56,899 bases of DNA from contig CAZMWA010000108.1 in NCBI GenBank assembly GCA_964569405.1, positions 1 through 56,899 of the forward strand, written 5' to 3'. Under the pieces are notes generated by a model. The model made no database searches, was not told where the DNA came from, and saw only the letters and a program-made list of their open reading frames with translations. Shown here piece by piece: positions 4,203 to 55,760 of the stretch. Numbering within the stretch: position 1 is the stretch's first letter; every line of letters starts with the position of its first letter. The DNA comes from an uncultured Vicinamibacteraceae bacterium. GTDB taxonomy: Bacteria > Acidobacteriota > Vicinamibacteria > Vicinamibacterales > UBA8438. Position numbers and translations under genes: made by a program.

Positions 4203-4361
4203 GCGCTCCCTCCGGGACGACAGCCAGTGTAGCAGGCCGTGGACTCGCGCCCCACGATACTCCACCGTACGGATCGCCCGGCCTGAGAGTACAATGCCTC
4301 CCGTCCGGCAGCTCGGGCAGGCCCGGGCGGCGGGGACTTCCGTGCATCCGGGGAGGCTCCC

Positions 4362-4472
4362 ATGCGGAGAACCACCGGCACGCCGTTCGAGTACGCCTGC
4401 CGCGAGGGCAACTACGGTCTGGTGAATGGGCTGCGCTCGGCGCGCTTCGAAGAACGAGGAGGCGAGAGATGA
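4362..4472 (+). pseudogene. 36-codon ORF that is a C-terminal relic of family A; possibly retained as a coupled upstream ORF of the PQQ dehydrogenase
   Basis: MRRTTGTPFEYACREGNYGLVNGLRSARFEERGGER aligns with the family A C-terminus (FEYACHEGNYAMEGILAGARAEE). GGGGAGG at 4350-4356 lies 5 nt before the ATG. Its TGA (4470-4472) overlaps the PQQ gene ATG (4469-4471). Confidence 0.4.
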
Positions 4473-6487
4473 CCCGGCGCTCCCCATCGCACGGCGGCGC
4501 CCTGCTTCCCTGCCTGGTGCTCGCCGGGGTCGTCTGGGCCGGCTCGTCTCCGGCGCGCGCCCAGGGCGGCTCCGACGACGGCGAGTGGCACTCCTGGGGC
4601 GGCAACGCGCAGTTCACGCGCTACTCGCCGCTGGACCAGATTGCGCCGCACAACGTCGCGGAGCTGGAGGTGGCGTGGCGCTGGGAGACGGCCGACCGCG
4701 AGCTGCAGGACTCGAACCCCCTGTGGCGCGCCGGCCGCAACGAGGACACGCCGCTCATGGCGAACGGCGTGCTGTACACCGTCACCGGGCTGGGCCTGAT
4801 CGCCGCGCTCGATCCGGCGACGGGCGAGACGCGCTGGGTGCACGACCCGCGGAGCTACGAGCAGGGCCGCTGGGGCGCCGTGGGATTCATCCAGCGCGGG
4901 CTGGCCTACTGGACCGACGGCATCGAGGAACGCGTGCTGGTCGGCACCATCGACGCCCATCTCATCTCGCTGGACGCGCGCACCGGGCAACCCGACGCCG
5001 CGTTCGGGGACGGCGGGCGGGTCGACCTGCTCGTCGGCGTGCCGCGCACGAGCCGCGACGCGCGGCACGTGGCCGCCCGGCGGCCGCTGGTGGCCGGCGA
5101 CGTGGTGGTCATCGGCAGCTCCATCTCGGATCGCCCGGCCAACCGCGAGATGCCGCCGGGCTCGGTGCACGCCTACGACGTCCGCAGCGGCCGCCGGCTG
5201 TGGACGTTCTACACGGTGCCGCGCGAGTTCGAGGCGGGCTACGAAACGTGGCTCAACGGCTCGGCCGAGTACTCCGGCAACGCCAACGTGTGGGCCGGCA
5301 TGGCCTACGACCCCGAGCTCGACTACGTCTACCTGCCCACGTCGACGCCGACGAACGACTACTACGGCGGCCAGCGGCCGGGCGACAACCTGTTCGCCGA
5401 GAGCCTCGTCTGCCTCGAGGCGCGGACCGGCCGCCGGGTCTGGCACTTCCAGGCCGTGCACCACGGGCTGTGGGACTACGACTTCGCGTCGACCCCCGTG
5501 CTGGCCGACATCACCGTCGACAGCCGGCCGATCAAGGCCGTCATCCAGGCCAGCAAGCAGGCCTTCGCTTACGTGTTCGACCGCGCGACCGGCGAGCCCG
5601 TGTGGCCCATCGAGGAGCGGCCCGTCCCCGAATCGACGGTACCCGGCGAGTGGACGGCGCCGACGCAGCCCTTCCCCACCCGGCCGCCGCCCTTCGACCT
5701 GCAGGGCGCCACCGAGGAGAACCTCATCGACTTCACGCCCGAGCTCCGGGAGCGGGCGCTGGCGCAGCTCGGGCAGTTCGACCACGGGCCCCTCTTCACG
5801 CCGCCGTCGCTGCGCGGCACGCTGATACTGCCCGGCATCGTCGGGGGCGCCAACTGGCCCGGCGGGGCGTTCGACACCGAGACGGGCCTCTTCTACGTGG
5901 CGTCGCGCATGAACCCGTCGCTCATCTTGGTATCGCCGGTCGATGCCGCGCGCTCCAACCTGCAGTACCGCGGGCAGGCGGGCGGGCCCGGGCAGGGCGG
6001 CGTGGGCGGCATGCCCGACGCGGCGAGCCGGATGACGGTGGACGGCCTGCCGCTGTTCAAGCCGCCGTACTTCCGGGTGACGGCAATCGACATGAATGCG
6101 GGCGAGCAGCGCTGGATGGCGCCGCTCGGCAACGGACCGGTCGACCACCCGCTGCTGCAGGACCTCGACCTCCCGCCGCTCGGAGGCGACTATCACCGGG
6201 GCAGCGTGCTGGTCACGAAGGGCCTGCTCTTCGTCAGCATGTCGGCCATGCACTCGCAGGGCGTCCCGCAACGCGCGGCCTGGTCGGAATGGGCCGATCC
6301 GGACGACGAGCTGAACCTGCTCTACGCGTTCGACAAGCTGTCGGGCGAGCTGCTGCACGCCTTTCGGCTCGACGGGTTCTCGGCCGCGGCGCCGATGACG
6401 TACGAGCACGAGGGCCGGCAGTACGTCGTGGTGGCGACAGGCTCCGGGCCGGACTCGGCGGTCGTCGCTCTCGGCCTGCCCGACTAG
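4469..6487 (+). CDS. PQQ-dependent dehydrogenase (quinoprotein, 8-bladed propeller), secreted
   Basis: 672 aa. Signal peptide, then DGEWHSWGGNAQFTRYSPLDQI...NVAELEVAWRWE, the typical quinoprotein dehydrogenase opening, with repeated W-containing propeller motifs. Confidence 0.85.
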   Translation: MTRRSPSHGGALLPCLVLAGVVWAGSSPARAQGGSDDGEWHSWGGNAQFTRYSPLDQIAPHNVAELEVAWRWETADRELQDSNPLWRAGRNEDTPLMANGVLYTVTGLGLIAALDPATGETRWVHDPRSYEQGRWGAVGFIQRGLAYWTDGIEERVLVGTIDAHLISLDARTGQPDAAFGDGGRVDLLVGVPRTSRDARHVAARRPLVAGDVVVIGSSISDRPANREMPPGSVHAYDVRSGRRLWTFYTVPREFEAGYETWLNGSAEYSGNANVWAGMAYDPELDYVYLPTSTPTNDYYGGQRPGDNLFAESLVCLEARTGRRVWHFQAVHHGLWDYDFASTPVLADITVDSRPIKAVIQASKQAFAYVFDRATGEPVWPIEERPVPESTVPGEWTAPTQPFPTRPPPFDLQGATEENLIDFTPELRERALAQLGQFDHGPLFTPPSLRGTLILPGIVGGANWPGGAFDTETGLFYVASRMNPSLILVSPVDAARSNLQYRGQAGGPGQGGVGGMPDAASRMTVDGLPLFKPPYFRVTAIDMNAGEQRWMAPLGNGPVDHPLLQDLDLPPLGGDYHRGSVLVTKGLLFVSMSAMHSQGVPQRAAWSEWADPDDELNLLYAFDKLSGELLHAFRLDGFSAAAPMTYEHEGRQYVVVATGSGPDSAVVALGLPD

Positions 6488-7494: not shown

Positions 7495-8430
7495 TTGCGC
7501 AGAGCCAGCGTCGGGCTGACGTTCATCGGCATGCTCCTGCTGCCGGCGGCGGCGACCGCGCAGCCCGGCGCGGACGCTGCCGGCATCCCGCGCACCCCCT
7601 GGGGCGCGCCGGATCTCATGGGGTACTGGACGTACGACACCACCACGCCCCTGCAGCGCCCCCCCGAGCTGGCGGGCAAGGAGGTGCTGACCCCGGCCGA
7701 GGCGGCCGCGTTCCTCGACGAGCGCTACGTCAGCATCGGCCGCGAGCGGGCCCTGCAGCTCAACGCGGACTGGTGGGTGCCCGGGGATCTGACAGGCGGC
7801 CGCACGGCGCTGATCGTCGATCCGCCGGACGGCCGGATACCCCCGCGGACGGCGGCCGGGCAGGCTCGGCTCGCGGCGCTCGCGCCGGCCCTGAGAACCC
7901 GGAAGGCGGACGGCCCCGAGGACCGCGAGCGCTACGAGCGGTGCATCATGGGCCGCTCGATTCCGATGGAGGCCAGGCCCGCGCCGCGCCTGTTCCAGGT
8001 CTTCCAGACCGCTGACCACGTGGTCCTGCTCAACGAGCAGAACTTCGAGATCCGCCTCGTCCCGCTGACGGGCGCGCCGCGTCTGCCGGCCCCGATCCGC
8101 CAGTGGCGCGGCGAGGGACGCGGGCGCTGGGACGGCGACACCCTGGTCATCGAGACCACGAACTTCAACGGCAAGTGGACGCTGCATGGCGCCGGTCCCG
8201 AGCTGCGGCTGGTCGAGCGGCTCTCGTTCGCCGACCCGGACACGCTGCAGTACGAGTTCACCGTGCACGATCCGGCGTCGTTCGTCCGCCCCTGGACCGT
8301 GCAGTTTCCGATCGCGCGGGCTGCCGGGCCGCTCTACGAATTCGCCTGCCACGAGGGCAACTACAGCCTGCCGCTCATCCTGAGCGGCGCGCGGGCGGAG
8401 GAAGCGGCGGCCGCCAAGAGAGTGCCGTAA
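7495..8430 (+). CDS. Secreted protein, family A
   Basis: TTG start at 7495 after GGAGGAGGA (7482-7490). Motifs TPWGAPDLMGYW, ERCIMG, RQWRGEGRGRWDGDTLVIETTNF, ACHEGNYSLPLILSGARAEE. Confidence 0.8.
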   Translation: MRRASVGLTFIGMLLLPAAATAQPGADAAGIPRTPWGAPDLMGYWTYDTTTPLQRPPELAGKEVLTPAEAAAFLDERYVSIGRERALQLNADWWVPGDLTGGRTALIVDPPDGRIPPRTAAGQARLAALAPALRTRKADGPEDRERYERCIMGRSIPMEARPAPRLFQVFQTADHVVLLNEQNFEIRLVPLTGAPRLPAPIRQWRGEGRGRWDGDTLVIETTNFNGKWTLHGAGPELRLVERLSFADPDTLQYEFTVHDPASFVRPWTVQFPIARAAGPLYEFACHEGNYSLPLILSGARAEEAAAAKRVP

Positions 8431-13622: not shown

Positions 13623-14133
13623 CTGACCGAGAGCCTGCCGCTCACGGAGCGCTGCATCACGTTCGGCGTGCCGAACCTGCTGGCCGGCTACAACAGCTAC
13701 TTCCAGATGCTGCAGACCGCGGACCACGTGGTGATCCTCCAGGAGCTCATCCACGACGCGCGCATCATCCCGATCCACGCGCGTGCGCCCCTCGACGCGG
13801 CGATCCGCCAGTGGCACGGCGACTCGCGCGGCCGCTGGGAGGGCAACGCCCTCGTCATCGAGACGACCAACTACTCGGACCGGGCGAGCCTGCGCGGCGC
13901 GTCCCGCAACGCGTACGTGACCGAGCGCCTCGAGCGTGTCGATCCCGAGACGATCCGATTACACCGTCACGTACGACGATCCCGACACGTGGGAGCGGCC
14001 CTGGACGCTGATGATTCCGCTCAGGAGGTCGAGCGCGGAGGACGCTCTCTTCGAGTACGCCTGCCACGAGGGCAACTACGCGATGGAGGGCATCCTGGCC
14101 GGTGCGCGCGCCGAGGAGGCCGGCGCGCGCTGA
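13623..14133 (+). pseudogene. Family A pseudogene: 5'-truncated and frameshifted
   Basis: One frame reads LTERCITFG...RQWHGDSRGRWEGNALVIETTNY...RVDPETI. After an extra C near 13956 the next frame reads DYTVTYDDPDTWERPWTL...FEYACHEGNYAMEGILAGARAEE. The signal peptide and WGDPDLQG region are absent; the upstream gene ends at 13554. Confidence 0.7.
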
Positions 14134-42234: not shown

Positions 42235-44145
42235 CTACTGCGCGCTGGCCGTCGGCCAGTCGATCTGCGCGCGGGCGGCGCCGTTGCGGTGCTCCCGCGT
42301 ATGCACGTTGAAGTAGAGCGCGCCCGACTCGAGATCGTCGCGCTCGGCGGCGCTGAGCGTCAGGGTGCCGGAGGCGCGGGTGGCGCCGGGGCCGGACAGC
42401 GGCAGCACCACCGGACCGATCTGGCCGGGGGCGCCGCGGTGCAGGTGCGTGGAGAGGACGTCGCCGGCGGGCGCGCCGTAGACGGTGACGGCGTAGCGCA
42501 ACTGCCGGGTCGCGGGGGTCCACGTGAGGCGGACGCCGGCCGTGACGCCGCTCTTGACCGCCGGCGCCGCTGCGGCGCCGGCCGCCGTCCACGCCGCCGT
42601 GCGCGAGGGGGCGGCGAGCAGGCTGGGCGTGGACGCCGGGGGCCGCCGATGGTGCGTCAACTGCTCGTACGAGTAGGCCAGGCGGATGAGGTCGCCCTCG
42701 GCCCACGTCCGCCCGAGCAGCTCGAGGCCGACCGGCAGGCCGTCGGCCGCGTACCCGGCCGGGACGACGATGGCCGGCAGGCCGGAGACGGCGCTCAACG
42801 CGCAGTTGTTGCCGCGCTGCGGCCAGCCGATCGGCGCGGCGGTGCGCCGCAGCGTCGGGTAGGCGAGCGCGTCGAGCCGCGCATCGTCCATGAATCTCGT
42901 CACCGCCTCCCGCAAGGGCCGGCGGCGGGCGAGCGCCTCGAGGTACTCGGGATCGTCGAGGCCGCGCACGCTGTCCGACCGCCGGTAGCGCTCCTCGACC
43001 GCCGCGTGATACAGCCCCGAGTCGAGAATCTCCCGCAGCGACTGCACCGGCGTGCCCGGCGCACGCAGGTAGTCGGCAAGCTGGAACTTGAACTCCACCG
43101 GGATGATCGACGCGCCGTCGAGCAGGTCCGGGACGCCCGGCAGATCCACGTCGAGCACCTCGGCCCCGGCCGCGGCCATCGTCTCCAGCGCGGCGCGGAT
43201 CACGGCCGCCACCGGCCCGTCCTCCGGCGCGCCGCCCACCAGCCAGGTGACGACGCCGATGCGTGCGCCCTCGAGCGCATCCTCCGCGAGGAAGGCCGTG
43301 TAGCTGTCCGGCACGCGGCCGCGGCCGCGCGCGGTCACCTCGTCGGCCGGATCGACGCCCACCGTGGCGTCGAGCACGATGGCCAGGTCGGTGACGGTCT
43401 TCGTCAGCGGCCCGCCCATGTCCTGCGTGAGCGCCAGCGGGACGATGCCGTCGCGGCTCGAGAGCCCGCGCGTGCCGCGCAGGCCGGCCAGGGCGTGGTG
43501 GGCCGACGGGACGCGGATCGACCCGCACGTGTCGGTCCCCATCCCGGCCGCGGCGAAGCCGGCCGCCACCGCGGCGCCCGTGCCGCCGCTCGAGCCGCCC
43601 GGGTTGCGGGTCGGGTCGTACGGGTTGCGGGTCTGCCCGCCCGCGGAGCTGACGGTCGTCAGCCCGTACGCCAGCTCGTGCATGTTGGCCTTGCCGATGA
43701 TGACGGCGCCGGCCTCCTTCAGCCTCGCCACCTGGAACGCATCGTCCGGCGGATGCCAGCCGGCCAGCGCGCTCGAGCCGGCGGTGGTCGGCAGGCCGGC
43801 CACGTCGTAGTTGTCCTTGACCACGACCGGGATGCCGTGGAGCGGGCCGCGGGGGCCGGTCGCGGCCCGCTCGCGGTCGAGCGCGGCCGCCTCGTCGAGC
43901 GCCCCGCCGTTGATGCTGATCATGGCTCTCAGCGCGGGGCCGCGGCGGTCGTATGCCTCGATGCGCGCAAGATACTGGGTCACCAGTTCGCGGGAGGTGA
44001 CGCGGCCGGCCTCCATCGCCGCCTGCAGCTCGGGGATGGTCCGCTCCACGACGTCGAACGGCGGCGGCGACGGCTGGCTGGAAGGTTCGCCGCAGGCGGC
44101 GGCGCAGAGTGCTGCAGAGAGAACGACCTGCCGTAGAAGCCTCAT
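42235..44145 (-). CDS. Amidase-signature enzyme fused to a C-terminal CHRD domain, lipoprotein
   Basis: GGSSGG amidase signature. C-terminal STHLHRGAPGQIGPVVLPL...YFNVHTREHRNGAARAQI (CHRD pattern). ATG 44145 gives MRLLRQVVLSAALCAAACG. Confidence 0.85.
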   Translation of the reverse strand: MRLLRQVVLSAALCAAACGEPSSQPSPPPFDVVERTIPELQAAMEAGRVTSRELVTQYLARIEAYDRRGPALRAMISINGGALDEAAALDRERAATGPRGPLHGIPVVVKDNYDVAGLPTTAGSSALAGWHPPDDAFQVARLKEAGAVIIGKANMHELAYGLTTVSSAGGQTRNPYDPTRNPGGSSGGTGAAVAAGFAAAGMGTDTCGSIRVPSAHHALAGLRGTRGLSSRDGIVPLALTQDMGGPLTKTVTDLAIVLDATVGVDPADEVTARGRGRVPDSYTAFLAEDALEGARIGVVTWLVGGAPEDGPVAAVIRAALETMAAAGAEVLDVDLPGVPDLLDGASIIPVEFKFQLADYLRAPGTPVQSLREILDSGLYHAAVEERYRRSDSVRGLDDPEYLEALARRRPLREAVTRFMDDARLDALAYPTLRRTAAPIGWPQRGNNCALSAVSGLPAIVVPAGYAADGLPVGLELLGRTWAEGDLIRLAYSYEQLTHHRRPPASTPSLLAAPSRTAAWTAAGAAAAPAVKSGVTAGVRLTWTPATRQLRYAVTVYGAPAGDVLSTHLHRGAPGQIGPVVLPLSGPGATRASGTLTLSAAERDDLESGALYFNVHTREHRNGAARAQIDWPTASAQ

Positions 44146-44169
44146 CCGGTCCGTCCTGCGGGGCTGCAA

Positions 44170-44243: not shown

Positions 44244-45275
44244 CTACGGCGCGGACTCCCGGTGCGACGCGCCGGCCTCGGCGTCCTCCACGCGGGCGCC
44301 GGCGAGGGTGTTCGGCATGGCGTAGTTCCCCTCGTGGCAGGCGTACTCGATCAGCGGCCAGTCGGTGGCCGCCATCGGCTGCTCCACCGTGAACGGCCGG
44401 ACGAAGGTCACCGGATCGTCCACGGTGTAGCGGTACATGAGCGTCGCGGCGTCCACGCGGGTGAAGCGCTCGACCAGCCGCAGGTTCTCGCCCGACCCCA
44501 CGGCGCTGGTGATCTCCGGGCTGAAGCTCGACGTCTTGTCCGTGAAGTTCGTCGTCTCGACCACCAGCGTGGCGCCGTCCCAGCGCGCCCGCGAGTCGCC
44601 CATCCACTGCCGCAGCCCCGGCGGCAGGTGCGCCCGCCCGTCGAGCGGGACGATCCGCGCATCGTGGACCATCTCGTTGAGGACGACCACGTGGTCGGGC
44701 GTCTGCAGCAACTGCATCGAGTTGTTGTAGAAGCTCGGAATCATCGGCGGACCGGAGTTGAACCCCAGGATGCAACGCTCGGCGATGCCGAGGTCCTCCG
44801 GGCCGTCCGCTATCCGGTTCGGCATGTAGCCGGCCACGCGCTCGCGGATGGGCCGCTCCCACGTCACCGCGCGCCGCGTCATCCGCCGCTGCTCGGCCGC
44901 CGTCAGGGGCGGCAGCCGGCCGTCCGGCGGGTCGATGATGAGCGAGGTACGCCGCGTCGGCACGACCTCCTCGCCCTGATCCAGCCAGAAGCGGTTGTAG
45001 AAGCCGGTGTCGCCCGCCTCCGGGACGCGGTCCACCCGCTCGGCCGCCGTGAGCGCCTCCTGGACGGCCGCCTCCTCGGCGCTGAGCACGACCGTCCCGG
45101 CCAGCTCGCCGGGACGTTCCAGCGGCGTGATGGTGCGGAAGTCCCAGATGCCCTGGAGGTCCGGGTCGCCCCACGGCGTGCGGGCACCGGCCGCGCCGTC
45201 CGCCGCCGGCTGCGCGCCGCAGACGGCAGGCACGAGAACGGCGAGACCGACGGCCACCAGCAGCTTCACGGCCAT
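44244..45275 (-). CDS. Secreted protein, family A
   Basis: ATG 45275 (GGGAG upstream). MAVKLLVAVGLAVLVPAVCGA, TPWGDPDLQGIW, ERCILGF, RQWMGDSRARWDGATLVVETTNF, ACHEGNYAMPNTLAGARVED. Confidence 0.85.
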   Translation of the reverse strand: MAVKLLVAVGLAVLVPAVCGAQPAADGAAGARTPWGDPDLQGIWDFRTITPLERPGELAGTVVLSAEEAAVQEALTAAERVDRVPEAGDTGFYNRFWLDQGEEVVPTRRTSLIIDPPDGRLPPLTAAEQRRMTRRAVTWERPIRERVAGYMPNRIADGPEDLGIAERCILGFNSGPPMIPSFYNNSMQLLQTPDHVVVLNEMVHDARIVPLDGRAHLPPGLRQWMGDSRARWDGATLVVETTNFTDKTSSFSPEITSAVGSGENLRLVERFTRVDAATLMYRYTVDDPVTFVRPFTVEQPMAATDWPLIEYACHEGNYAMPNTLAGARVEDAEAGASHRESAP

Positions 45276-45298: not shown

Positions 45299-46219
45299 TC
45301 AGCGGGTCACCGTGATCATGAGATTCTCGCTGGTCGTCAGCGCACTGTCGCCCGCCAGGGCGCGCAGCACGTATGTCCCGGGCTCGTCGAAGGTCACGGC
45401 CACCTCCCACCTGCCGTCCTCGGGAACGGGCGGAATCAGATAGGGGAACGACCAGGGCGAGTTCGCGTACACGCGCGTGTCCTGCCACATCTTCAACTGC
45501 TCGGGGTAGAACGTGACCTTGGACGCGTCGCCGCGGTACACGATCCACGCGAACCGCAGGCCGGGCGGGTTGCCGGGCACGATCTGCCGGGGCGGCATGT
45601 AGGCCGGGTGCGGCTTGCCGGACTCCACCATGGGCGGCTCGTACGTGCCCGTCGGGATGCCGTCGTCGGACGCGAAGGCCACCAGCCGCAACGGCTCGCC
45701 GACCCGCACGCGGCGCGGCTGGTCCACGGCGAGGTCGAGGGTCGGGAACTCGTTGTCGCGCCACTCGTCGATGACGCCCCCGAAGTTCGCGCCCATCTCG
45801 GTGCCGATGGTCTGCGGATCGAGCAGGTAGTCCGTGCGCAGCGAGCCGTAGGCCCGCTCCGTCCGTCCGTTGGTCGTGAGCGTCCAGACGACCTCCTGAT
45901 CCCCGAAGTCCGCCGGCACCTCGACCGTGAACAGGAACAGGTTGCGGCGCGGGTAGAAGTGCGTCGGCTGCCCCCGGTCGGGCCCGCCGGGCTCGATGTT
46001 GTTGTCGGGACCGATCGGTACGTCCAATTCCTCCACCCAGTTCGAGTTCATGTAGCCGAAGAACAGCGAGTAGGTGCCGTCCTCGTTCTGCCACCAGCCC
46101 TCGAACGCGGGCGACACGCTCTGCCCCCGCGAGTACGTGAACCGGGTCTGCGCATTCAACCCCAGGCCCGCCACGAGCAGGGCCAGCACCACAAGCAGCC
46201 AGCATGTTCTCTTCTTCAT
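45299..46219 (-). CDS. Secreted protein, family B (unknown; partner of the cytochrome c/PHM-like gene)
   Basis: 306 aa with a signal peptide. Paralog of 53047..53937; shared blocks include PAFEGW, FGY-x-N-x-NW, GPDN-x-EPGGPD-x-GQPT, VWTLT-x-NG-x-T-x-RAYGSL. Confidence 0.75.
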   Translation of the reverse strand: MKKRTCWLLVVLALLVAGLGLNAQTRFTYSRGQSVSPAFEGWWQNEDGTYSLFFGYMNSNWVEELDVPIGPDNNIEPGGPDRGQPTHFYPRRNLFLFTVEVPADFGDQEVVWTLTTNGRTERAYGSLRTDYLLDPQTIGTEMGANFGGVIDEWRDNEFPTLDLAVDQPRRVRVGEPLRLVAFASDDGIPTGTYEPPMVESGKPHPAYMPPRQIVPGNPPGLRFAWIVYRGDASKVTFYPEQLKMWQDTRVYANSPWSFPYLIPPVPEDGRWEVAVTFDEPGTYVLRALAGDSALTTSENLMITVTR

Positions 46220-46247: not shown

Positions 46248-47672
46248 CTACTGCTGATCGTCCTGCTGGTCGTTCGCCGCCGCGGCCTGCGACGGGAACT
46301 CCACCTGGCACAACGGACACCCGATGACGTGATCGTTCCTGGTGAGCTGCAGCCGCGCCCGGCGCTCGGCCATCTCGCGCTCGAACTGCTCGTCGGTCAG
46401 CTCGTAGGCCAGCCCCAGGTCGATGAACATGTTGGACACCGAGCGGCGGCCGCCGCCCGACCAGTTCCGCGGGTCGGCCACGTTGCGGTTGGCCGCCGTC
46501 GTGTCCAGCCAGCCGATGATGTGCAGGATGGTCCCCTTCGGCAGCAGCGGCGCGTGGTCGTCCTCGAAGATGTACTGCTTCACCCAGTTGTGGTCGTAGC
46601 CCACGCACGACAGCGTCTCGATGTTGTGGCCCCAGATGGCCTCGAGGCACATGCGCGTCCCGGGGGCGTGCTGGTGCGGCTCGAACGACAGCAGCTTGGT
46701 GTGCGCGTCGAGCACGCGGTACGCATGCAGCTCCTGGCCGGCCTGGTTCGGCTTGATGTCGATGTCGACGCCGTTGCCCACGAAGGTCCGCGCGTACCTC
46801 ACCGCCGGCTCGTAGCCCCGGGGGTGCAGCTTGAACGCGAACTTCAGGTGCGCCCGCGTCTCGCGGCCGTTCGAGTGCAGGTGAGCGTTGTGCAGGTCGA
46901 GCACCGACCCCGCCTCGAGCAGCCGCCCCGCCTCCGGCGGGAACACGTCCGCGTTGCGCCCCACCTCGTGGACCGGCCAGCCGTCCGGACGCTGGCCCGC
47001 ATCCGCGTCGGGCCCCAGCGACCCGTAGTTCATGTGGTGGAACACGTAGCGCCCGCCGACCGTGCCGGAGGCCTGCGTCCGCGGCACGTCGTTGAACTCC
47101 CTGACCTCGACGGCCGCGACGTAGCGGTCTTCCGTCAACCCGGTCTCGAGCCTGCCGAGCGACGTCCAACTGTCCGGCGCCGAGGCCGGCACGACGACCC
47201 CGGGGGACTCGAGAATCAGATCGGGCTCGCCGATCGTCCACTCGTCCTCGCCGGCGAACTGGAGCGGCGGCGGCAGGTCGGCCGGGTTGCCCAGCGGCGC
47301 GCCGTTGTCCGCCCAGATCGCGATGGCCTCGATCTCGTCCTCGCTCAGCGAGGGATCGTTCTTGAAATGCTGGATCCCGATGTCCTTCTCGACGAACCAC
47401 GGCGGCATGGCGCCGCGCCGGTGCCGCAAGGCGGTCCGCGCCTTGATGGCCCGCGCCCAGGGCCGCGTCTCCTCGTACGTCAGGAGCGACATCGGCGCCA
47501 CCGAGTCCGGCCGATGGCACTGCTGGCAGCTCCGCTGGAGGATGGGCGCGATATCCTTCGCGAATGTCACCTCGGGCTGGCCGGAAGCGCCCGATCCGCC
47601 CGGCTGGGCGCCCGCGGCGACCGGCACCAGCACGGCGGCCATCAGAAGCGCGGAACGATACGTGCCTGTCAT
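46248..47672 (-). CDS. Secreted fusion, family C: PSCyt1-type cytochrome c motif + PHM/DBH-like putative copper monooxygenase domain
   Basis: Signal peptide. FAKDIAPILQRSCQQCHRP (CxxCH). His clusters FHHM, HNAHLHS, FEPHQHAPGTRMC and a distal NMF. AAGGAGAG RBS upstream. Confidence 0.75.
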   Translation of the reverse strand: MTGTYRSALLMAAVLVPVAAGAQPGGSGASGQPEVTFAKDIAPILQRSCQQCHRPDSVAPMSLLTYEETRPWARAIKARTALRHRRGAMPPWFVEKDIGIQHFKNDPSLSEDEIEAIAIWADNGAPLGNPADLPPPLQFAGEDEWTIGEPDLILESPGVVVPASAPDSWTSLGRLETGLTEDRYVAAVEVREFNDVPRTQASGTVGGRYVFHHMNYGSLGPDADAGQRPDGWPVHEVGRNADVFPPEAGRLLEAGSVLDLHNAHLHSNGRETRAHLKFAFKLHPRGYEPAVRYARTFVGNGVDIDIKPNQAGQELHAYRVLDAHTKLLSFEPHQHAPGTRMCLEAIWGHNIETLSCVGYDHNWVKQYIFEDDHAPLLPKGTILHIIGWLDTTAANRNVADPRNWSGGGRRSVSNMFIDLGLAYELTDEQFEREMAERRARLQLTRNDHVIGCPLCQVEFPSQAAAANDQQDDQQ

Positions 47673-48011
47673 GTACAGAACTCTCCTTCGAAATCAGCCG
47701 ACAATCGCGATCAGTATCCCTCCAAACCCCCCGGGACGCAACCGTATCCACGCGGCGGGGCGGCCGTATAATCGCTCTGTGGCGGGACACAACGGAGGGA
47801 AACGTGACAGGTGGAACACGCCGGAGGCCGCTCCCGGGTCATACGCCCGCGGACACGGCCGGGCGCGCCCACCCGTCGCTGCCCGCCCGGGCAATCTCCA
47901 GAATGTGGCCGTCGCCCGGGCGGACAAGACCGTATCCAGACTAGCGGGGCAGCGTAACGCCTTGTCGACGGCGCCGTTGCGGGCGCGTTAAATCCAGGAG
48001 GTAGCACACCA

Positions 48012-50785: not shown

Positions 50786-51235
50786 TCAGGCGATGCCCTG
50801 CGGGCCGGGTTCCGGCGACTCGCTCGGCGCCGCGCGCCACGCCTCGAGCCGCAGGCCGGTAATGCGGCGCATGTGATCGGCGTCATCGCTGACCAGCACG
50901 GCGTCCCTTGCGAGCGCGTGAGCGGCGATCGCGACGTCGAAGTCCTCGATGCGAACGCCGCGGCGTTCCAGATCCGCTTTCGTCGTGCCGAACGCGCGGC
51001 TCACCTCGTCGGTCCACTCCGCGCGCGGCATCTCGTCCAGAAACGCCCGGAAGCGCGCAGCCAGCCGCGTCCGGCGCTTCGACCTGCGCATCCGCGCCAG
51101 GCCGTACTCGACCTCGGCAACGACCGGCTGGGGCAGCAGCACGTCGGTCCGGGCGAGCGACAGCAGCCGTTCGCAGACCTGCGGCTCGCCCCCCATCGCA
51201 TACGACAGCGTGTTGGTGTCCAGCACGTACTTCAC
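50786..51235 (-). CDS. vapC: PIN-domain toxin VapC
   Basis: GTG 51235, reading VKYVLDTNTLSY. Acidic residues at LVSDDADH. GTGA overlap with the vapB stop. Confidence 0.8.
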   Translation of the reverse strand: MKYVLDTNTLSYAMGGEPQVCERLLSLARTDVLLPQPVVAEVEYGLARMRRSKRRTRLAARFRAFLDEMPRAEWTDEVSRAFGTTKADLERRGVRIEDFDVAIAAHALARDAVLVSDDADHMRRITGLRLEAWRAAPSESPEPGPQGIA

Positions 51236-51486
51236 AACGTCGGCGGTTCCTTTCGCGTTCGGCCGGCCGCCACCGCCGCGCGCAGGTCCGCGAGCGCGGC
51301 GCGGCCCTCGGAGTCGGCGCGCGCCGCCTCGAGCTCGGCGACGAACGCGGCGCTCCAGCGTGTTTCCGTCGTCACGACGCTCTCCAGGGCGCGCACGATG
51401 TAGCGGTTGCGGCTCACGCCGAGATCCAGCGCCCGCCGGTCGACCATCGCGAGGAGCTGCGGAGGCAGGTGAACGGTCGTGCTCAT
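51232..51486 (-). CDS. vapB: Ribbon-helix-helix (CopG-type) antitoxin VapB
   Basis: 84 aa. VHLPPQLLAMVDRRALDLGVSRNRYIVRALE is a typical RHH. Confidence 0.75.
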   Translation of the reverse strand: MSTTVHLPPQLLAMVDRRALDLGVSRNRYIVRALESVVTTETRWSAAFVAELEAARADSEGRAALADLRAAVAAGRTRKEPPTL

Positions 51487-51611
51487 GATGAATAGAATAG
51501 GAGGCTATTCGTCCATGGTCAATGCCGGGGCAAGCACGCCACGGAGCAACCCGGGAGCCGGCCGGCCGCACCTGGGCTAGAATGAGCACTCGCACGGAGG
51601 AGGTCCAAGCG

Positions 51612-53024
51612 ATGCAGACCATCTCGAACCGCCGGCTCCCGCTGCCGGCCGTTGTCCTCGCCGGGCTCGCGCTGCTCGCGAGCGCGCCGCCGTGGGCGCC
51701 CGACGCGGCCGCCCAGACCGGCTCGCAGCCGTCGGTGACGTTCACGCGGGACGTCGCGCCGATACTCCAGCGCTCGTGCCAGGCGTGCCATCGTCCGGGC
51801 TCCATCGCCCCGATGTCGCTGGTCACGTACGAAGAGGTGCGGCCGTGGGCGCGGGCCATCAGGGACAAGACCTCCCGGCCCGACAACGACCCGGACCGGA
51901 TGCCGCCGTGGTTCATCGAGAAGAACATCGGCATCCAGCGCTTCAAGGAAGACATCTCCCTGAGCCCGGCAGAAATCGAGACGATTGCGGCCTGGGCGGA
52001 CGGCGGGGCGCCCCGCGGCAACCCGGCCGACCTGCCGCCGGCCATCGAGTGGCCCGCGGGCAAGGACTGGTCGTTCGGCGAGCCGGACCTGGTCGTCTCG
52101 TCGCCCGGACACACGCTCGAGGCGGTGGCGGCCGACTGGTACGGCCTGCTCGACCCGTCGCCCACCGGGCTGACCGAGGACCGCTGGGTCAAGGCCGTCG
52201 AGGTGCGCGAGGTGCTGCTGGACGAGGCCACGGTCGAGCGCAAGTCGGGCGACCTCAACCTGTTCGTCGTGCACCACGCCGTCATCTCCGCCCGCGAGCG
52301 GTCGGAGGAAATCCAGACCCAGTCGCGGCCGGGCAGCGCGCGCGGTCCGACCGACCTGTTCATGGTCGTCCACGAGGTGGGCCAGAACGCCACCCACTAT
52401 CCCGAGGTGCTCGGCGTGCGCCTGCCGGCCGGCTCGTCGCTCAACTGGGACCTGCACCTGCACTCCATCGGCGTCGAGGTGCCGTTCCGCATCGACGTCG
52501 CGTTCAAGTTCCACCCCCGGGGCTGGGAGCCGAAGTACAGCGGCCGCGGCGGCATCATCAGCTACCTGACCTTCGACATCGACATCCCGCCCGAGGAGCC
52601 GAACGCGAAGATGGAGGGGATGCAGCTCGTGACGCAGCCGGGCATCCTGATGACGTTCGAGCCGCACCTGCACTCGAGCGGCAAGCGGATGTGCATCGAG
52701 GCCATGTACCCCAGCGGCCTGAGCGAGATGCTCAACTGCGCCGGCTACAACCACAACTGGGTGAAGGTGTACGTCTACGACGAGGACCACGCGCCGCTGC
52801 TGCCCGCCAACACGCTGCTGCGGGTCACCGCGTGGTACGACAACACGCTGAACAACCCGCGCGTGGTGGATCCGCGCAACTGGAAGGGCTACGGCAACCG
52901 CTCGACCGACGACATGTTCCTGAACCTCTCCCGGTTCGTGCCGATCACCGAGGCGCAGTACCAGGAGGAGCTCGAGCGGCGCCAGGCGCTGGAGCGGGCG
53001 CGGTTGACGCAGGACAACGACTGA
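51612..53024 (+). CDS. Secreted fusion, family C paralog: cytochrome c motif + PHM/DBH-like domain
   Basis: ATG 51612 after GGAGGAGG. FTRDVAPILQRSCQACHRP. VVHHA, WDLHLHS, FEPHLHSSGKRMC, DDMF. Collinear with 46248..47672. Confidence 0.8.
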   Translation: MQTISNRRLPLPAVVLAGLALLASAPPWAPDAAAQTGSQPSVTFTRDVAPILQRSCQACHRPGSIAPMSLVTYEEVRPWARAIRDKTSRPDNDPDRMPPWFIEKNIGIQRFKEDISLSPAEIETIAAWADGGAPRGNPADLPPAIEWPAGKDWSFGEPDLVVSSPGHTLEAVAADWYGLLDPSPTGLTEDRWVKAVEVREVLLDEATVERKSGDLNLFVVHHAVISARERSEEIQTQSRPGSARGPTDLFMVVHEVGQNATHYPEVLGVRLPAGSSLNWDLHLHSIGVEVPFRIDVAFKFHPRGWEPKYSGRGGIISYLTFDIDIPPEEPNAKMEGMQLVTQPGILMTFEPHLHSSGKRMCIEAMYPSGLSEMLNCAGYNHNWVKVYVYDEDHAPLLPANTLLRVTAWYDNTLNNPRVVDPRNWKGYGNRSTDDMFLNLSRFVPITEAQYQEELERRQALERARLTQDND

Positions 53025-53046: not shown

Positions 53047-53937
53047 ATGAGAGCGCACAGCCGATTCCCGTGGACGCCCGCGACGGTCGCCGCCGCGGCA
53101 GCGGCCCTGCTGCTGGCGGGCGCGCCCGGCGACGGCGGCGGGCAGGTCGTCTACCGCACCGGCCAGGACATCGCCCCCGCCTTCGACGGCTGGGAGGAGC
53201 GCCCCGACGGGACGTTCGACCTGGCCTTCGGCTACTTCAACCGCAACTGGGACGAGAAGCCGTTCGTGCCGGTCGGCCCGGACAACCACCTCGAGCCGGG
53301 CGGGCCGGACCAGGGACAGCCGACGCTGTTCCAGCCGCGCCGCAACCGGTTCGTCTTCCGCATCAACGTGCCCGCCGACTTCGGCGACCGCGAGATCGTG
53401 TGGACGCTGACGGCCAACGGCAAGACCAGCCGGGCGTACGGCTCGCTGCTGCCCGGCTACATCACCGACTCGGAGCTGCAGCAGTTCGACATCGGCGACT
53501 TCGGCCACAACAACGAGGAGATGCGGGCCAACCTGGCGCCGACCGTGCGCGTGGAGGGCAGCCTCGAGCGGACCGTGGCCGTGGGCCAGCCGCTGGCGCT
53601 CGCGGCCGTGGCGGCGGACGACGGCATCCCGCCGGTGCACGCGGCGCCGCTGCGGCTGGTCGGCCGCCACGGCGCCTGGGGGCTGCGCGTGGCGTGGATC
53701 GTCTACCGCGGCCCCGAGCGCCACGTGAGGTTCGACCCGTACCAGTTCAAGACGTATCCCGACTACCGCAGCAACTCGCCGTGGACGCCGGGCTGGGAGC
53801 CGCCGCCGCTCCCGGCGGACGGCCGCTTCCCGGTAACCGCGACGTTCAGCCAGCCGGGCGAGTACGTCATCCGCGCGCAGGCGCACGACGGCGGCCTGAA
53901 GGACACCGAGGACGTGACGGTGATCGTCACGCCCTGA
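53047..53937 (+). CDS. Secreted protein, family B paralog
   Basis: 296 aa. Collinear similarity with 45299..46219. Confidence 0.75.
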   Translation: MRAHSRFPWTPATVAAAAAALLLAGAPGDGGGQVVYRTGQDIAPAFDGWEERPDGTFDLAFGYFNRNWDEKPFVPVGPDNHLEPGGPDQGQPTLFQPRRNRFVFRINVPADFGDREIVWTLTANGKTSRAYGSLLPGYITDSELQQFDIGDFGHNNEEMRANLAPTVRVEGSLERTVAVGQPLALAAVAADDGIPPVHAAPLRLVGRHGAWGLRVAWIVYRGPERHVRFDPYQFKTYPDYRSNSPWTPGWEPPPLPADGRFPVTATFSQPGEYVIRAQAHDGGLKDTEDVTVIVTP

Positions 53938-53954: not shown

Positions 53955-54569
53955 ATGCAGGTCGAGCCGCACGAGTCCGGACTTGCGTTCACGCGGGAGC
54001 ACCGTGGGGCAGGCGGGGTGCGCCTCGCCCTGCTGGCGGCAGCGCTGCTGGCGGCCGTGTCGTTCGGCGCCGCCTGCGCCGCCCGGCCGGACGCGGCCGC
54101 CGGCAACCAGGGCGGGGAGGCGGCGCTGAGCGACGTCGAGCGCCTCCTCGCCATCGAGGAGATCGGGCGCCTCAAGGCGAGCTATTTCCGCTGCCTGGAC
54201 ACCAAGGACTGGGCCTGCATCGCGACGCTGTTCACGCCCGACGCGACCGCGGTCTACAACGTCGAGGGCTCGGGCGACCCGGCCACGCCCGACAACCCGG
54301 TGACCGGCAACGAGGCCATCGCCGCCTTCATCCAGCGCGCCGTCGAGCACCTGGTCACGATCCACCACGGGCACATGCCGGAGATCGAGATCACCTCCCC
54401 CACCACCGCGACCGGCATCTGGGCGATGCTGGACATCCTCCAGGAGCCCGGCGGGGAGAACCTGGTCCACGGCTGGGGCCACTACCACGAGACCTACGAG
54501 CGCATCGACGGCCGCTGGCACATCAAGACGCTGCGGCTGACGCGGCTGCGCGTCGACCGCGCCGAGTAA
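53955..54569 (+). CDS. SnoaL-like/NTF2-fold protein, secreted or anchored
   Basis: ATG 53955 in frame with ORF 53070..54569. IEEIGRLKASYFRCLDTKDW, WHIKTLRLTR. Confidence 0.7.
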   Translation: MQVEPHESGLAFTREHRGAGGVRLALLAAALLAAVSFGAACAARPDAAAGNQGGEAALSDVERLLAIEEIGRLKASYFRCLDTKDWACIATLFTPDATAVYNVEGSGDPATPDNPVTGNEAIAAFIQRAVEHLVTIHHGHMPEIEITSPTTATGIWAMLDILQEPGGENLVHGWGHYHETYERIDGRWHIKTLRLTRLRVDRAE

Positions 54570-54992: not shown

Positions 54993-55760
54993 CTAGCGGT
55001 ACTTCGGGATCATGAACCGCACCGGACGCCGCGCCTCCTCCGGGTCGCACTCGTACGCCTGCAGGCGGTAGCCGTCGGGCGCCGGCAGCCACTGGGTGGT
55101 GTACGAGGCCGGCTCCCTGAGGAAGAGCGGATCCTCGACGGTGACGGTCACCCTCAGGGCCTCCCCCTCGCGCCAGTAGCGCTCGGTCACGCGCTTGAGC
55201 TGCGAGGACGGGATGCCGTTGTAGTCGTCGAAGCCGGTGATGTCGAACACGAAGTGGGTAGTCTCGACGAGCAGCGCGCCGTCCTGGTAGCGGCCCACCG
55301 AGAAGCCCTGGATGCCGTAGTCGCCGACGGTGGGCTGGCGCCCGTCGAGCCAGACCGTGCGCACCTGATCGTCCTTCTCGTAGCGGAACAGCACCCGCTC
55401 GGGCCACTGCACGACCTCCATCATGTAGGGGTCGTACTGCAGGGCGGGCGGCGTGGCCGGCACGCAGTCGTACTTCTGCGCTATCGCCTCGTCGAACACC
55501 TGCTGAAAGGCGAGCGCGCGCTCGTTCAGCACGGGGAAGTTGTCGGGCGTCCACGGCATGTCCGGGCCGTTGACCGGGCGCGCGCGGGGGCTTCCGTCCC
55601 ACACGCCCGCCAGGCGGGGTGCCTCGCCCGCGGCCTCCTGTGCCGCCGCGCCCGCCCCGGGCCCGGCGCCGGCCGCTATCACCACCACGAGTGCGAGCGG
55701 CGCCGCGAGCTGCACGGACCACCGCGAAACGAACCGGTTGCGCATCTTCCGCATGGGCAT
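54993..55760 (-). CDS. Secreted protein, divergent member of family A
   Basis: ATG 55760 (255 aa). YDCVPATPP...MMEVVQWPERVLFRYE...WLDGRQP...GFSVGRYQDGALLVETTHF aligns with the ERC...VQ-P...RQW-GDSRGRWEGDTLVV-TTNF core. Confidence 0.7.
   Translation of the reverse strand: MPMRKMRNRFVSRWSVQLAAPLALVVVIAAGAGPGAGAAAQEAAGEAPRLAGVWDGSPRARPVNGPDMPWTPDNFPVLNERALAFQQVFDEAIAQKYDCVPATPPALQYDPYMMEVVQWPERVLFRYEKDDQVRTVWLDGRQPTVGDYGIQGFSVGRYQDGALLVETTHFVFDITGFDDYNGIPSSQLKRVTERYWREGEALRVTVTVEDPLFLREPASYTTQWLPAPDGYRLQAYECDPEEARRPVRFMIPKYR

Follow-up and report, generated by a model that had tools for sequence, protein, structure and literature searches.

A predicted fusion of haem c with a PHM/DBH-like copper monooxygenase core, and its linked partner gene, in an uncultured acidobacterium

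Does an uncultured acidobacterium encode, within a single secreted protein, both a haem c domain and a copper monooxygenase core of the type found in peptidylglycine alpha-hydroxylating monooxygenase (PHM) and dopamine beta-monooxygenase (DBH)? The question arises from a sequence-only reading of one open reading frame (ORF), which noted a cytochrome c motif ahead of a beta-rich domain with a suggestive set of His and Met residues. PHM, DBH and tyramine beta-monooxygenase (TBM) are the textbook "noncoupled binuclear copper" monooxygenases, treated as eukaryotic and ascorbate-dependent; they carry two coppers and hydroxylate C–H bonds by means of O2 and two external electrons, which ascorbate supplies in the known members. 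In the PHM family the two mononuclear copper sites lie ~11 Å apart across a solvent cleft, and in PHM, DBH and TBM the CuH site (three His) is the point of electron entry and the CuM site (two His and a Met) that of O2 activation. To our knowledge, ascorbate is generally absent from bacteria.

The ORF, here called enzyme gene A (Table 1), lies in a window of 56,899 nucleotides, the whole stretch of DNA analyzed, on contig CAZMWA010000108.1 of assembly GCA_964569405.1; the encoding organism is a sponge- or coral-associated acidobacterium. Both the ORF and the motifs quoted from it were found where the sequence-only reading had placed them, and its GC3 of 0.95 is usual for real genes in a window of 70% GC. 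In the product, a Sec-type signal peptide precedes a monohaem class-I-like cytochrome c domain and two beta-sandwich domains. The putative signal peptide (M1 to A22, with cleavage between AGA and Q) was assigned by eye, and residues 1–29 are modeled with a pLDDT below 50 by AF2. At the other end of the protein, the CPLC motif is present in 67 of 129 close homologs and absent in the B-type paralog. Conservation was assessed in two sets: A1, with these 129 non-redundant close homologs (Neff 2.5), and A2, with 43 far more diverse representatives reaching down to 28% identity.

Table 1. Coordinates of the two enzyme loci and their mapped features, counted from the first nucleotide of the window.
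Feature	Position	Strand	Remark
Third gene of likely operon, 343-aa secreted protein	44244..45275	(-)	23 bp downstream of partner A
Partner gene A, 306-aa secreted, tandem Ig-like beta-sandwich fold	45299..46219	(-)	28 bp downstream of enzyme gene A
Enzyme gene A, predicted secreted cytochrome c-PHM/DBH-like fusion	46248..47672	(-)	ORF, 474 aa and stop codon
C-terminal CPLC motif, residues 452-455	46308..46319	(-)	specific to A-type subfamily
C-terminal beta-sandwich, CuM-type domain, residues ~288-426	46395..46811	(-)	alignment to PHM and DBH
M415	46428..46430	(-)	aligns to PHM M314
H333-Q-H335	46668..46676	(-)	align to PHM H242/H244, DBH 'HTH'
N-terminal beta-sandwich, CuH-type domain, residues ~150-287	46812..47225	(-)	alignment to PHM and DBH
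H264	46881..46883	(-)	aligns to PHM H172, DBH 'VHYH'
H212/H213	47034..47039	(-)	align to PHM H107/H108, DBH 'LVHHM'
Monohaem c-type cytochrome domain, residues 34-128	47289..47573	(-)	near-threshold Cytochrome_CBB3 match, invariant C49/C52/H53/M89
M89 (MPPW), candidate distal ligand	47406..47408	(-)	invariant Met
CQQCH, residues 49-53	47514..47528	(-)	CxxCH motif
Sec-type signal peptide, residues 1-22, MTGTYRSALLMAAVLVPVAAGA, cleaved before Q	47607..47672	(-)	by eye from sequence
Enzyme gene B, paralog, 470 aa	51612..53024	(+)	45% identical to enzyme A
Enzyme B CQACH	51777..51791	(+)	haem motif
Enzyme B HH	52272..52277	(+)	CuH-type motif
Enzyme B H282	52455..52457	(+)	third His, HLHS motif
Enzyme B H352/H354	52665..52673	(+)	HxH, PHLH motif
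Enzyme B M435	52914..52916	(+)	DDMF motif
Partner gene B, 296 aa	53047..53937	(+)	22 bp downstream of enzyme B
SnoaL_4 (NTF2-like) gene	53955..54569	(+)	Pfam SnoaL_4 E 2.7e-29; 17 bp downstream of partner B

The stretch FAKDIAPILQRSCQQCHRP of enzyme A holds the CxxCH motif, and this CQQCH is invariant in both homolog sets, as are C49, C52, H53 and M89. The last of these stands at the end of a match to the Pfam model Cytochrome_CBB3, which scores 26.2 bits (E 9.9e-6) against the isolated haem domain—marginally missing the gathering cutoff of 27—and is matched by 37 of the 43 diverse relatives; M61, the other candidate for the distal iron ligand, is kept in 41/43. Helices are modeled at residues 37–50, 66–81 and 111–122 of this domain. 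The layout resembles that of class I monohaem cytochromes c, with an N-terminal helix ahead of CxxCH and, 36 residues beyond the motif, an invariant Met ("MPPW"); a KDI.PI...C..CH motif is common to enzyme A and PccH (PDB 4RLR). Unlike class I cytochromes c, however, the domain is not free-standing, and it falls below the Pfam gathering score. The motif had initially been described as PSCyt1-type, a label we have dropped: the PSCyt1 model (PF07635) gave no match at E<=10 to the isolated domains of either paralog or at E<=1 to the full proteins, and the domain is better described as class-I/cbb3-like. The cytochrome fusion is found in every full-length family member examined.

For the remainder of the protein, homology became visible by structure and by a diverse profile. 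The AF2 model of enzyme A (pLDDT 78.9, pTM 0.77) was compared with the PDB by Foldseek, and the best 31 matches are exclusively human DBH or rat PHM, with E-values of 1.1e-9 to 1.7e-5, a probability of 1.00 and TM scores of 0.5–0.58 on target length. The PHM/DBH-like fold that the sequence-only reading had anticipated is thus recovered by structure prediction. At the sequence level, early searches against PDB sequences, with a single sequence or with the A1 profile (Neff 2.5), returned the CxxCH region alone, and hhalign of the shallow A1 profile with PHM gave a probability of 0.2. Homology to PHM/DBH is significant solely with the custom 43-member profile A2, which finds DBH (chain 4zel_A, E 9.6e-9) and PHM chains (E ~4e-5); hhalign of A2 with PHM gave E 2.6e-5 over 231 columns, at a probability of just 75% because the PHM side is a single sequence. 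When the two paralogs were scanned with Pfam and NCBIfam, no copper-monooxygenase model matched, and in the case of Pfam none matched enzyme A even at E<=1; this includes Cu2_monooxygen and Cu2_monoox_C, the two models proposed as a check on the original reading. Among the 43 relatives, sub-threshold matches (E<0.1) were obtained with Cu2_monoox_C in 15 (best 7.3e-6) and with Cu2_monooxygen in seven (best 9.2e-5), with 23.1 bits as the best score, below the cutoff of 30. We take the missing matches as a limit of model sensitivity and not as evidence of absence.

For each of the six PHM copper ligands the alignment, with the PHM sequence and its numbering checked against the PDB chains, gives a family residue of at least 93% conservation. 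The HH pair of the CuH-type domain is H212/H213 in an FHHM motif (VVHH in the paralog), which aligns to PHM H107/H108, and the third His, which in the PHM/DBH family lies ~50–65 residues after the pair, is H264 and aligns to PHM H172. It belongs to a cluster, HNAHLHS, that had been singled out as a whole; H264 alone is universal, while H261 is variable and H266 is kept in 32/43. On the CuM side, FEPHQHAPGTRMC holds H333 and H335 and NMF (DDMF in the paralog) holds M415, the equivalents of PHM H242, H244 and M314; the PHM/DBH family places this Met ~70–80 residues after HxH. Invariant across A1 are C49, C52, H53, M89, H212, H213, H264, H266, H333, H335 and M415; in the broader A2, C49, C52, H53, M89, H212, H264 and H333 are kept in 43/43, H213 and H335 in 42/43 and M415 in 40/43. 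Judged from these alignments, the haem and copper-ligand residues are conserved far above chance. M341, C342, C356 and H361, by comparison, are conserved in the close subfamily only. The proposed correspondence to CuH and CuM accordingly survives ligand by ligand, and we infer that the six residues of enzyme A cluster into two predicted copper sites. Homology, fold and ligand conservation, all established in silico, support the reading of enzyme A as a PHM/DBH-like copper monooxygenase.

The paralog carries the same set of residues, as had been claimed (CQACH, VVHH, HLHS, PHLH and DDMF). Enzymes A and B share 45% identity across 440 residues (E 1e-126), and the start codon of enzyme gene B at 51612 is backed by 471-aa orthologs with 100% coverage. 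Each enzyme gene is directly followed by a gene for a secreted partner, the two partners being 48% identical (E 2e-77), so the enzyme–partner pair occurs twice in this window. This linked gene was absent from the sequence-only reading. Of 80 loci gathered with profile A1, a set that is biased towards A-type relatives and includes a Luteitalea MAG and a Gemmatimonas MAG, 73 have the gene for a ~300-aa secreted partner directly after the enzyme gene and in the same orientation; in silico, the gene pair is conserved, and tandem arrays occur in loci L085 and L086. Partner A has more than 6,000 homologs and no Pfam domain, and Pfam and NCBIfam scans of the partner returned nothing. Its AF2 model is of low confidence (pLDDT 66.8), and Foldseek retrieves generic tandem Ig-like matches only (TM ~0.2–0.3), so no function can be derived for it from these data. 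Most likely the partner would cooperate with the enzyme, either as a subunit that binds or presents the substrate or as the enzyme's target.

Other neighbors are less constant. The third gene of the likely operon is without a Pfam match; its family has five copies or fragments in the window, and a homolog occurs within 5 kb of an enzyme gene in just 16 of the 80 loci, with no fixed place or orientation. The SnoaL_4 gene is possibly co-transcribed with partner B and also adjoins B-type homologs in L001, L085 and L086. The adjacent amidase-CHRD, DUF2911, glyoxalase and LVIVD genes were considered as a specific pathway link and dismissed, as each is found in at most five of the 80 loci. Because the neighbors besides the partner vary, gene context names no pathway.

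Taken together, we consider it reasonably probable (roughly 0.6) that gene A encodes a periplasmic haem c–PHM/DBH-type copper monooxygenase in which electrons pass from haem to CuH to CuM, working with its partner protein. The enzyme would be exported by the Sec route to the periplasm as a monohaem c-type cytochrome joined to a two-domain core homologous to PHM and DBH. Haem c would be bound at C49/C52, with H53 and, probably, M89 as axial ligands, and would take up electrons one at a time from the respiratory pool of the periplasm and pass them to a CuH-type site formed by H212, H213 and H264. These electrons would then move to a CuM-type site (H333, H335 and M415), where O2 would be activated and a C–H bond of the bound substrate hydroxylated. 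If the haem does feed CuH with single electrons, the tethered cytochrome would therefore fill the role that ascorbate plays in the animal enzymes. From the homology and gene context described above we infer that the protein is loaded with metal and haem, that electrons flow in this direction, that the chemistry is that of a monooxygenase and that the partner has the role suggested. As to the substrate, three PHM residues that contact it are replaced (R240 by E331, N316 by I417 and Y318 by L419); E331 is invariant in the 129 close homologs, and the wider family has mostly Q or E at this position, where Arg is not one of its commonest residues. Because the carboxylate-binding residues of PHM are replaced, the substrate is predicted not to be peptidylglycine or another peptide with a C-terminal glycine.

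Other functions could be built on the same parts. The protein may bind haem and copper and yet act as an oxidase or electron sink that reduces O2 or reactive oxygen species (ROS), for instance in oxygen or ROS protection, with no substrate hydroxylated. A two-copper site with a fused cytochrome would suit simple cytochrome c:O2 oxidoreduction, substrate-binding residues could not be identified, and among the relatives there are fusions (P0280) to AhpC/TSA peroxiredoxin and thioredoxin-like domains, which have a redox-defense character. We nevertheless regard this as unlikely: in PHM-type sites, O2 reduction is established to be tightly coupled to hydroxylation of the substrate, and the diverged paralogs, tandem arrays and dedicated partner suggest diversification of substrates rather than one housekeeping reaction. 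Less likely again is that electrons run the other way or that CuH is not fed by the haem, so that the cytochrome is an exit route to the respiratory chain, a sensor or a docking module and the coppers have another reductant. In favor of this, periplasmic PQQ dehydrogenases, which are donors to cytochromes c, are encoded nearby in the window and beside one homolog. However, the conserved His2Met site of CuM activates O2 in every characterized member, at a cost of two electrons per turnover, and a cytochrome fusion that is invariant across the family is what would be expected of an obligate donor.

A role in inorganic nitrogen metabolism, acting on nitrite, NO or hydroxylamine, appears improbable. 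It would follow the logic of the cytochrome c-fused copper nitrite reductases, since a three-His copper site is here likewise joined to a cytochrome c, and the surroundings of the haem motif show a weak resemblance to the hydrazine synthase alpha haem domain (E 7.6e-4); that resemblance, however, extends over just ~26 residues around CxxCH. The fold, moreover, is that of PHM/DBH and not a cupredoxin, denitrification genes are absent from the vicinity, and several paralogs and arrays per genome would be atypical of N-oxide reductases. Hardly credible, finally, is the suggestion that the beta-sandwiches bind no metal and serve as a structural or carbohydrate-binding module of the PHM/PNGase F superfamily, with the conserved His and Met residues playing a structural part. 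PNGase entries do occur among the weaker Foldseek matches (E ~2e-3), and the Pfam copper-monooxygenase models stay below threshold; but the DBH and PHM matches are better by 4–6 orders of magnitude, and the six copper ligands, which align to those of PHM/DBH, are essentially the sole conserved His and Met residues of the core and are kept across relatives of 28–50% identity.

The reading that we prefer, a haem-fed copper monooxygenase, can be set against several known systems. With PHM (the catalytic core of PAM; PDB 1PHM, 1SDW and 4E4Z) enzyme A shares the core of two beta-sandwiches (Foldseek E 1e-7 to 1e-5), the aligned ligands and a secreted or lumenal location. PHM, in contrast, lacks a cytochrome domain and uses ascorbate as donor, the sequences are only ~10–14% identical, and the bacterial protein is periplasmic, by prediction, with a dedicated partner gene. 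Within the group of DBH, TBM and MOXD1 (PDB 4ZEL), DBH is the best match both in structure (E 1.1e-9) and in sequence (E 9.6e-9); DBH and the bacterial family have the third CuH ligand in the same "HYH" context, and both proteins place an extra N-terminal domain before the catalytic core. In DBH, however, this is a DOMON domain and the donor is ascorbate, whereas the bacterial domain is a c-type cytochrome with CxxCH, and the dimerization domain of DBH is missing in the bacterial enzyme. Outside the family, cytochrome c-tethered copper nitrite reductases are known, for example from Ralstonia pickettii and Pseudoalteromonas haloplanktis, and in some copper nitrite reductases the tethered domain reduces the copper center; likewise, the cytochrome domain of cellobiose dehydrogenase (CDH) reduces the copper of LPMO. 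The design would be the same, a fused or dedicated haem domain passing single electrons to mononuclear copper outside the cytoplasm, but the copper-domain folds are unrelated (cupredoxin or LPMO versus PHM-type) and the chemistry and substrates are different.

Enzyme A has more than 7,000 homologs, and the family amounts to 15,748 clusters at 50% identity, chiefly from Acidobacteriota and Gemmatimonadota. Public databases name these homologs "cytochrome c", "hypothetical" or "thiol-disulfide isomerase"; standard annotation, in other words, fails to recognize the family. Near-identical sequences are found in metatranscriptomes: contigs of 95–99% likeness span the gene body in four further studies, with at least 90% in a fifth, and coverage of the upstream intergenic bins is zero, although such contigs can include DNA and sequences of close paralogs. 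The sequence-only reading knew of no characterized bacterial enzyme with this architecture, and we likewise found no description of a bacterial cytochrome c–PHM fusion in the full-text literature searched, a scope outside which most subscription journals lie. A review of metalloproteomes lists PHM and DBM as cuproproteins of eukaryotes only (PMC7435645).

We give even odds to a broader proposition, namely that a very large unrecognized clade of PHM/DBH-type two-copper monooxygenases, with an obligately fused haem c and an Ig-like partner, exists in bacteria, above all in Acidobacteriota and Gemmatimonadota, and that these enzymes hydroxylate extracytoplasmic substrates. If so, the animal enzymes responsible for noradrenaline and for amidated neuropeptides would have their prokaryotic counterpart in this clade and may even have evolved from it, and the evolutionary origin of animal PHM/DBH enzymes would become testable. 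Long-range electron transfer from CuH to CuM and O2 activation in PHM are still debated, and the bacterial proteins would offer a tractable, self-contained system for both, as well as a new class of ascorbate-independent biocatalysts for C–H hydroxylation. For the bacteria themselves, the finding would point to periplasmic C–H hydroxylation chemistry in lineages that are abundant in soil, in the sea and in association with sponges or corals.

Enzyme A, one of the window's two paralogous secreted cytochrome fusions, is predicted from sequence profiles and a structural model to be homologous to, and to work like, the copper monooxygenases PHM and DBH; we put the combined statement on homology, fold and ligands at about 90%. 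The AlphaFold2 model of enzyme A (mean pLDDT 78.9, pTM 0.77), built from 129 close homologs of <88% mutual identity (alignment A1), starts with a helical N-terminal domain, after which come two beta-rich ones. Its 31 best Foldseek matches in the PDB, 29 of them PHM entries ranked behind human dopamine beta-hydroxylase (4ZEL, E 1.1e-9), have E values up to 1.7e-5, probability 1.00 and PHM-normalised TM scores of 0.46-0.58, in agreement with the PHM/DBH-like core proposed in the sequence-only reading; unrelated double-jelly-roll capsid proteins and PNGases surface only from E>=1e-3. The shallow A1 profile did not reach PHM, either in a PDB sequence search or by hhalign against PHM. The profile of 43 diverse full-length representatives (A2; 28-56% identity to the query) recovered DBH (E 9.6e-9) and PHM chains (about 4e-5) among all PDB sequences, and hhalign aligned it with the PHM catalytic core over 231 columns (E 2.6e-5, probability 75%), the PHM side being a single sequence verified against PDB chain 4E4Z_A. 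Scanned against Pfam and NCBIfam, the window proteins gave no copper-monooxygenase match and only sub-threshold cytochrome matches. The proposed check with Cu2_monooxygen and Cu2_monoox_C thus came out negative for enzyme A, which falls short of the curated Pfam thresholds for the PHM/DBH family, and sub-threshold in its relatives: Cu2_monoox_C in 15/43 A2 members (best E 7.3e-6) and Cu2_monooxygen in 7/43 (best 9.2e-5). Cytochrome_CBB3 was matched by 37/43.

Genes of the window and motif residues of enzyme A, with PHM counterparts and DBH sequence contexts
Feature	Position	Strand	Remarks
Enzyme A	46248..47672	-	474 aa plus stop codon
Partner A	45299..46219	-	306 aa, secreted; 28 bp downstream of enzyme A
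Third gene of cassette A	44244-45275	-	343-aa secreted protein, family without Pfam match; 23 bp on
Amidase with C-terminal CHRD domain	42235-44169	-	Pfam E 4e-100 and 2e-16; 77 bp downstream of cassette A
Enzyme B	51612..53024	+	paralog of enzyme A
Partner B	53047..53937	+	48% identical to partner A; follows enzyme B
SnoaL_4 protein gene, cassette B			17 bp after partner B
VapBC-like pair	50786-51486	-	between LVIVD gene and enzyme B
RHH antitoxin	51232-51486	-	
PIN toxin	about 50786-51250	-	
PQQ-dependent dehydrogenase	4469-6487	+	Pfam PQQ E 5e-187
Further copies/fragments, ~340-aa family	817-1860, 4353-4502, 7516-8388, 13629-14097		
255-aa protein	54996-55760		adjoins DUF6152 gene
CQQCH	residues 49-53		haem motif
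FHHM	H212, H213		PHM H107/H108; DBH 'LVHHM'
HNAHLHS	H261, H264, H266		H264: PHM H172; DBH 'VHYH', mirrored by the family's H-x-H266
FEPHQHAPGTRMC	H333, H335		PHM H242/H244; DBH 'HTH'
NMF	M415		PHM M314, common context 'G..S.(D/N)(E/N)M'; outside aligned region in DBH
CPLC	residues 452-455 (46308-46319)	-	C-terminal

The earlier CuH (HH+H) and CuM (HxH+M) pattern translated directly into the PHM alignment, where PDB chain position i is PAM residue i+44 and ligand identities were confirmed on PAM numbering: six residues align with PHM ligands, so that all six predicted copper ligands of a noncoupled binuclear site are conserved and in the same order. C49, C52, H53, M89, H212, H264 and H333 are invariant in A1 and present in 43/43 A2 sequences; H213 and H335 (42/43) and M415 (40/43) are likewise invariant in A1, as are M341, C342, C356 and H361, which are subfamily-specific in A2. 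The His cluster described earlier as conserved holds for H264, but H261 varies in both alignments and H266, invariant in A1, is found in just 32/43 A2 sequences. The residues that anchor substrate in PHM are not conserved: R240 is replaced by E331 (invariant in the 129 close homologs; mostly Q or E in the wider family, with Arg not among the commonest residues), N316 by I417 and Y318 by L419. Enzyme A therefore lacks the substrate-binding residues specific to PHM; these replacements rule it out as a peptidylglycine hydroxylase, and that name is unsuitable.

The enzyme A ORF is genuine, with a third-position GC of 0.95, typical for true genes of this ~70% GC window. All motifs quoted earlier lie in it where they had been placed, and each recurs, as had been claimed for those of the beta-rich domain, in enzyme B (45% identity over 440 residues, E 1e-126), for which 471-aa orthologs with 100% coverage favour a start at 51612 over one at 51522. 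By eye, the enzyme A N-terminus, MTGTYRSALLMAAVLVPVAAGA followed by QP, looks like a Sec signal peptide. The CPLC motif, a candidate for Cu(I) handling or for a redox CxxC role, is kept across the whole A-type subfamily (relatives of enzyme A; 67/129 A1 sequences) and absent from the B-type enzyme B.

The haem domain had been labelled PSCyt1-type, but PSCyt1 does not match it even at E<=10; residues 34-128 instead approach the Cytochrome_CBB3 cutoff (26.2 bits against 27, E 9.9e-6), with weaker matches to Haem_bd and PccH. This domain has the pattern '(T/K)F.KD(I/V).PI....C..CH' in common with PccH and the hydrazine synthase alpha haem domain, over ~25 residues only. M89, in an invariant 'MPPW' 36 residues past H53 and ahead of the domain's last helix, stands where class I cytochromes c usually have their distal Met and is by position a candidate distal ligand, M61 being an alternative. 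CxxCH was found in every full-length family member examined, which makes the cytochrome-PHM fusion obligate.

The family is large. A 90%-clustered database yields >7,000 homologs for each enzyme (E<=1e-3), which carry no assigned Pfam domain and go by the names 'cytochrome c', 'mono/diheme cytochrome c family protein' or 'hypothetical protein'; an exhaustive profile search over 1.84 billion 50%-identity representatives, the source of A2, returned 15,748 proteins at E<=1e-3, of which 2,408 also pass E<=1e-30. Among distant relatives, P0280 (1251 aa) combines AhpC-TSA, cytochrome c, Thioredoxin_8 and a cytochrome c-PHM-like unit, and P0288 (1064 aa) two such units with EF-hands; P0348 is named 'thiol-disulfide isomerase' by NCBI and has only cytochrome c and Cu2-monooxygenase Pfam matches.

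At least 571 related loci turned up in a scan across GTDB. Among the best 80, a set skewed towards A-type relatives, 73 have the partner, which the sequence-only reading passes over, directly downstream of the enzyme gene and on the same strand, and every other neighbour is limited to 16 loci or fewer; the conserved unit is the enzyme-partner gene pair. Tandem arrays occur in other Acidobacteriota genomes: one locus (L085, 1-9400) carries at least four copies of the enzyme gene and three of the partner gene within 17 kb, another (L086, 1000-9400) three and two. The partner family has >6,000 members and no Pfam domain; its modelled fold (pLDDT 66.8), a pair of beta-sandwich domains, resembles nothing more specific than generic tandem Ig-like proteins. 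With no invariant Cys or Met and H87 as the sole nearly invariant His, it gives no hint of a metal site.

Elsewhere in the window, the ~340-aa secreted family without Pfam match has five copies or fragments, including the third cassette A gene; tblastn cross-matches at two loci (27-29% identity) suggest a distant relationship to the 255-aa protein. The amidase-CHRD gene keeps its position in the closest relatives only, and no gene is called at the position of the VapBC-like pair in a close relative (L001).

Among genome loci, the nearest (97% identity) belongs to a Vicinamibacteraceae MAG, and most relatives fall within Vicinamibacterales, Bryobacteraceae, other Terriglobia and Gemmatimonadota. 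Window DNA is present in sponge and coral-reef metagenomes. Metatranscriptome contigs of 95-99% likeness from four further studies tile the enzyme A gene body, and those of a fifth, from sponge, span the whole three-gene cassette A at >=90%; in all five, the first intergenic bin upstream (47666-47806) has no coverage. Coming from assembled contigs, with possible DNA carry-over and segments common to paralogs, this is consistent with transcription in situ of enzyme A or near-identical orthologs. Bin 44282-44422 stands well above nearly all others in all five (contig depth 261 to about 4,400), many contigs diverging into unlike sequence at 44349/44350; the depth likely reflects a C-terminal motif, ..EYACHEGNY.., common to many expressed paralogs.

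In a metalloproteome review, PHM and DBM appear as cuproproteins of eukaryotes only (PMC7435645). Current annotations of the family proteins miss the copper domain, and the searched literature gave no description of a signal peptide, cytochrome c and PHM-type core with an Ig-like partner gene, nor, as had been supposed, of any characterised bacterial enzyme of this architecture. In PHM, DBH and TBM, electrons enter at CuH (three His), while CuM (two His and Met) binds O2 and abstracts the substrate hydrogen; by analogy the two sites would do the same here. Where a bacterial periplasm lacks ascorbate, the obvious one-electron donor to CuH would be the tethered, invariant cytochrome c, itself re-reduced by periplasmic carriers. 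Tethered cytochromes serve as donors in some copper nitrite reductases, and in fungi a cytochrome domain reduces LPMO copper. We consider the full mechanism, a haem-fed copper monooxygenase, somewhat more probable than not, and clearly less secure than the homology.

A PQQ-dependent dehydrogenase lies in the window, and on three other contigs one (L082-L084:5949-7820) divergently adjoins a 67%-identical enzyme homolog; both hint that the setting is oxidative, periplasmic and linked to cytochromes. Some neighbourhoods are periplasmic and catabolic in character, with PQQ dehydrogenase, SGL lactonase, cyclase, amidohydrolase and SnoaL genes. Together with the diverged paralogs and tandem arrays, these catabolic neighbourhoods tentatively suggest that the substrates may be organic and diversified, belonging to oxidative metabolism of the periplasm, and not a single inorganic compound.
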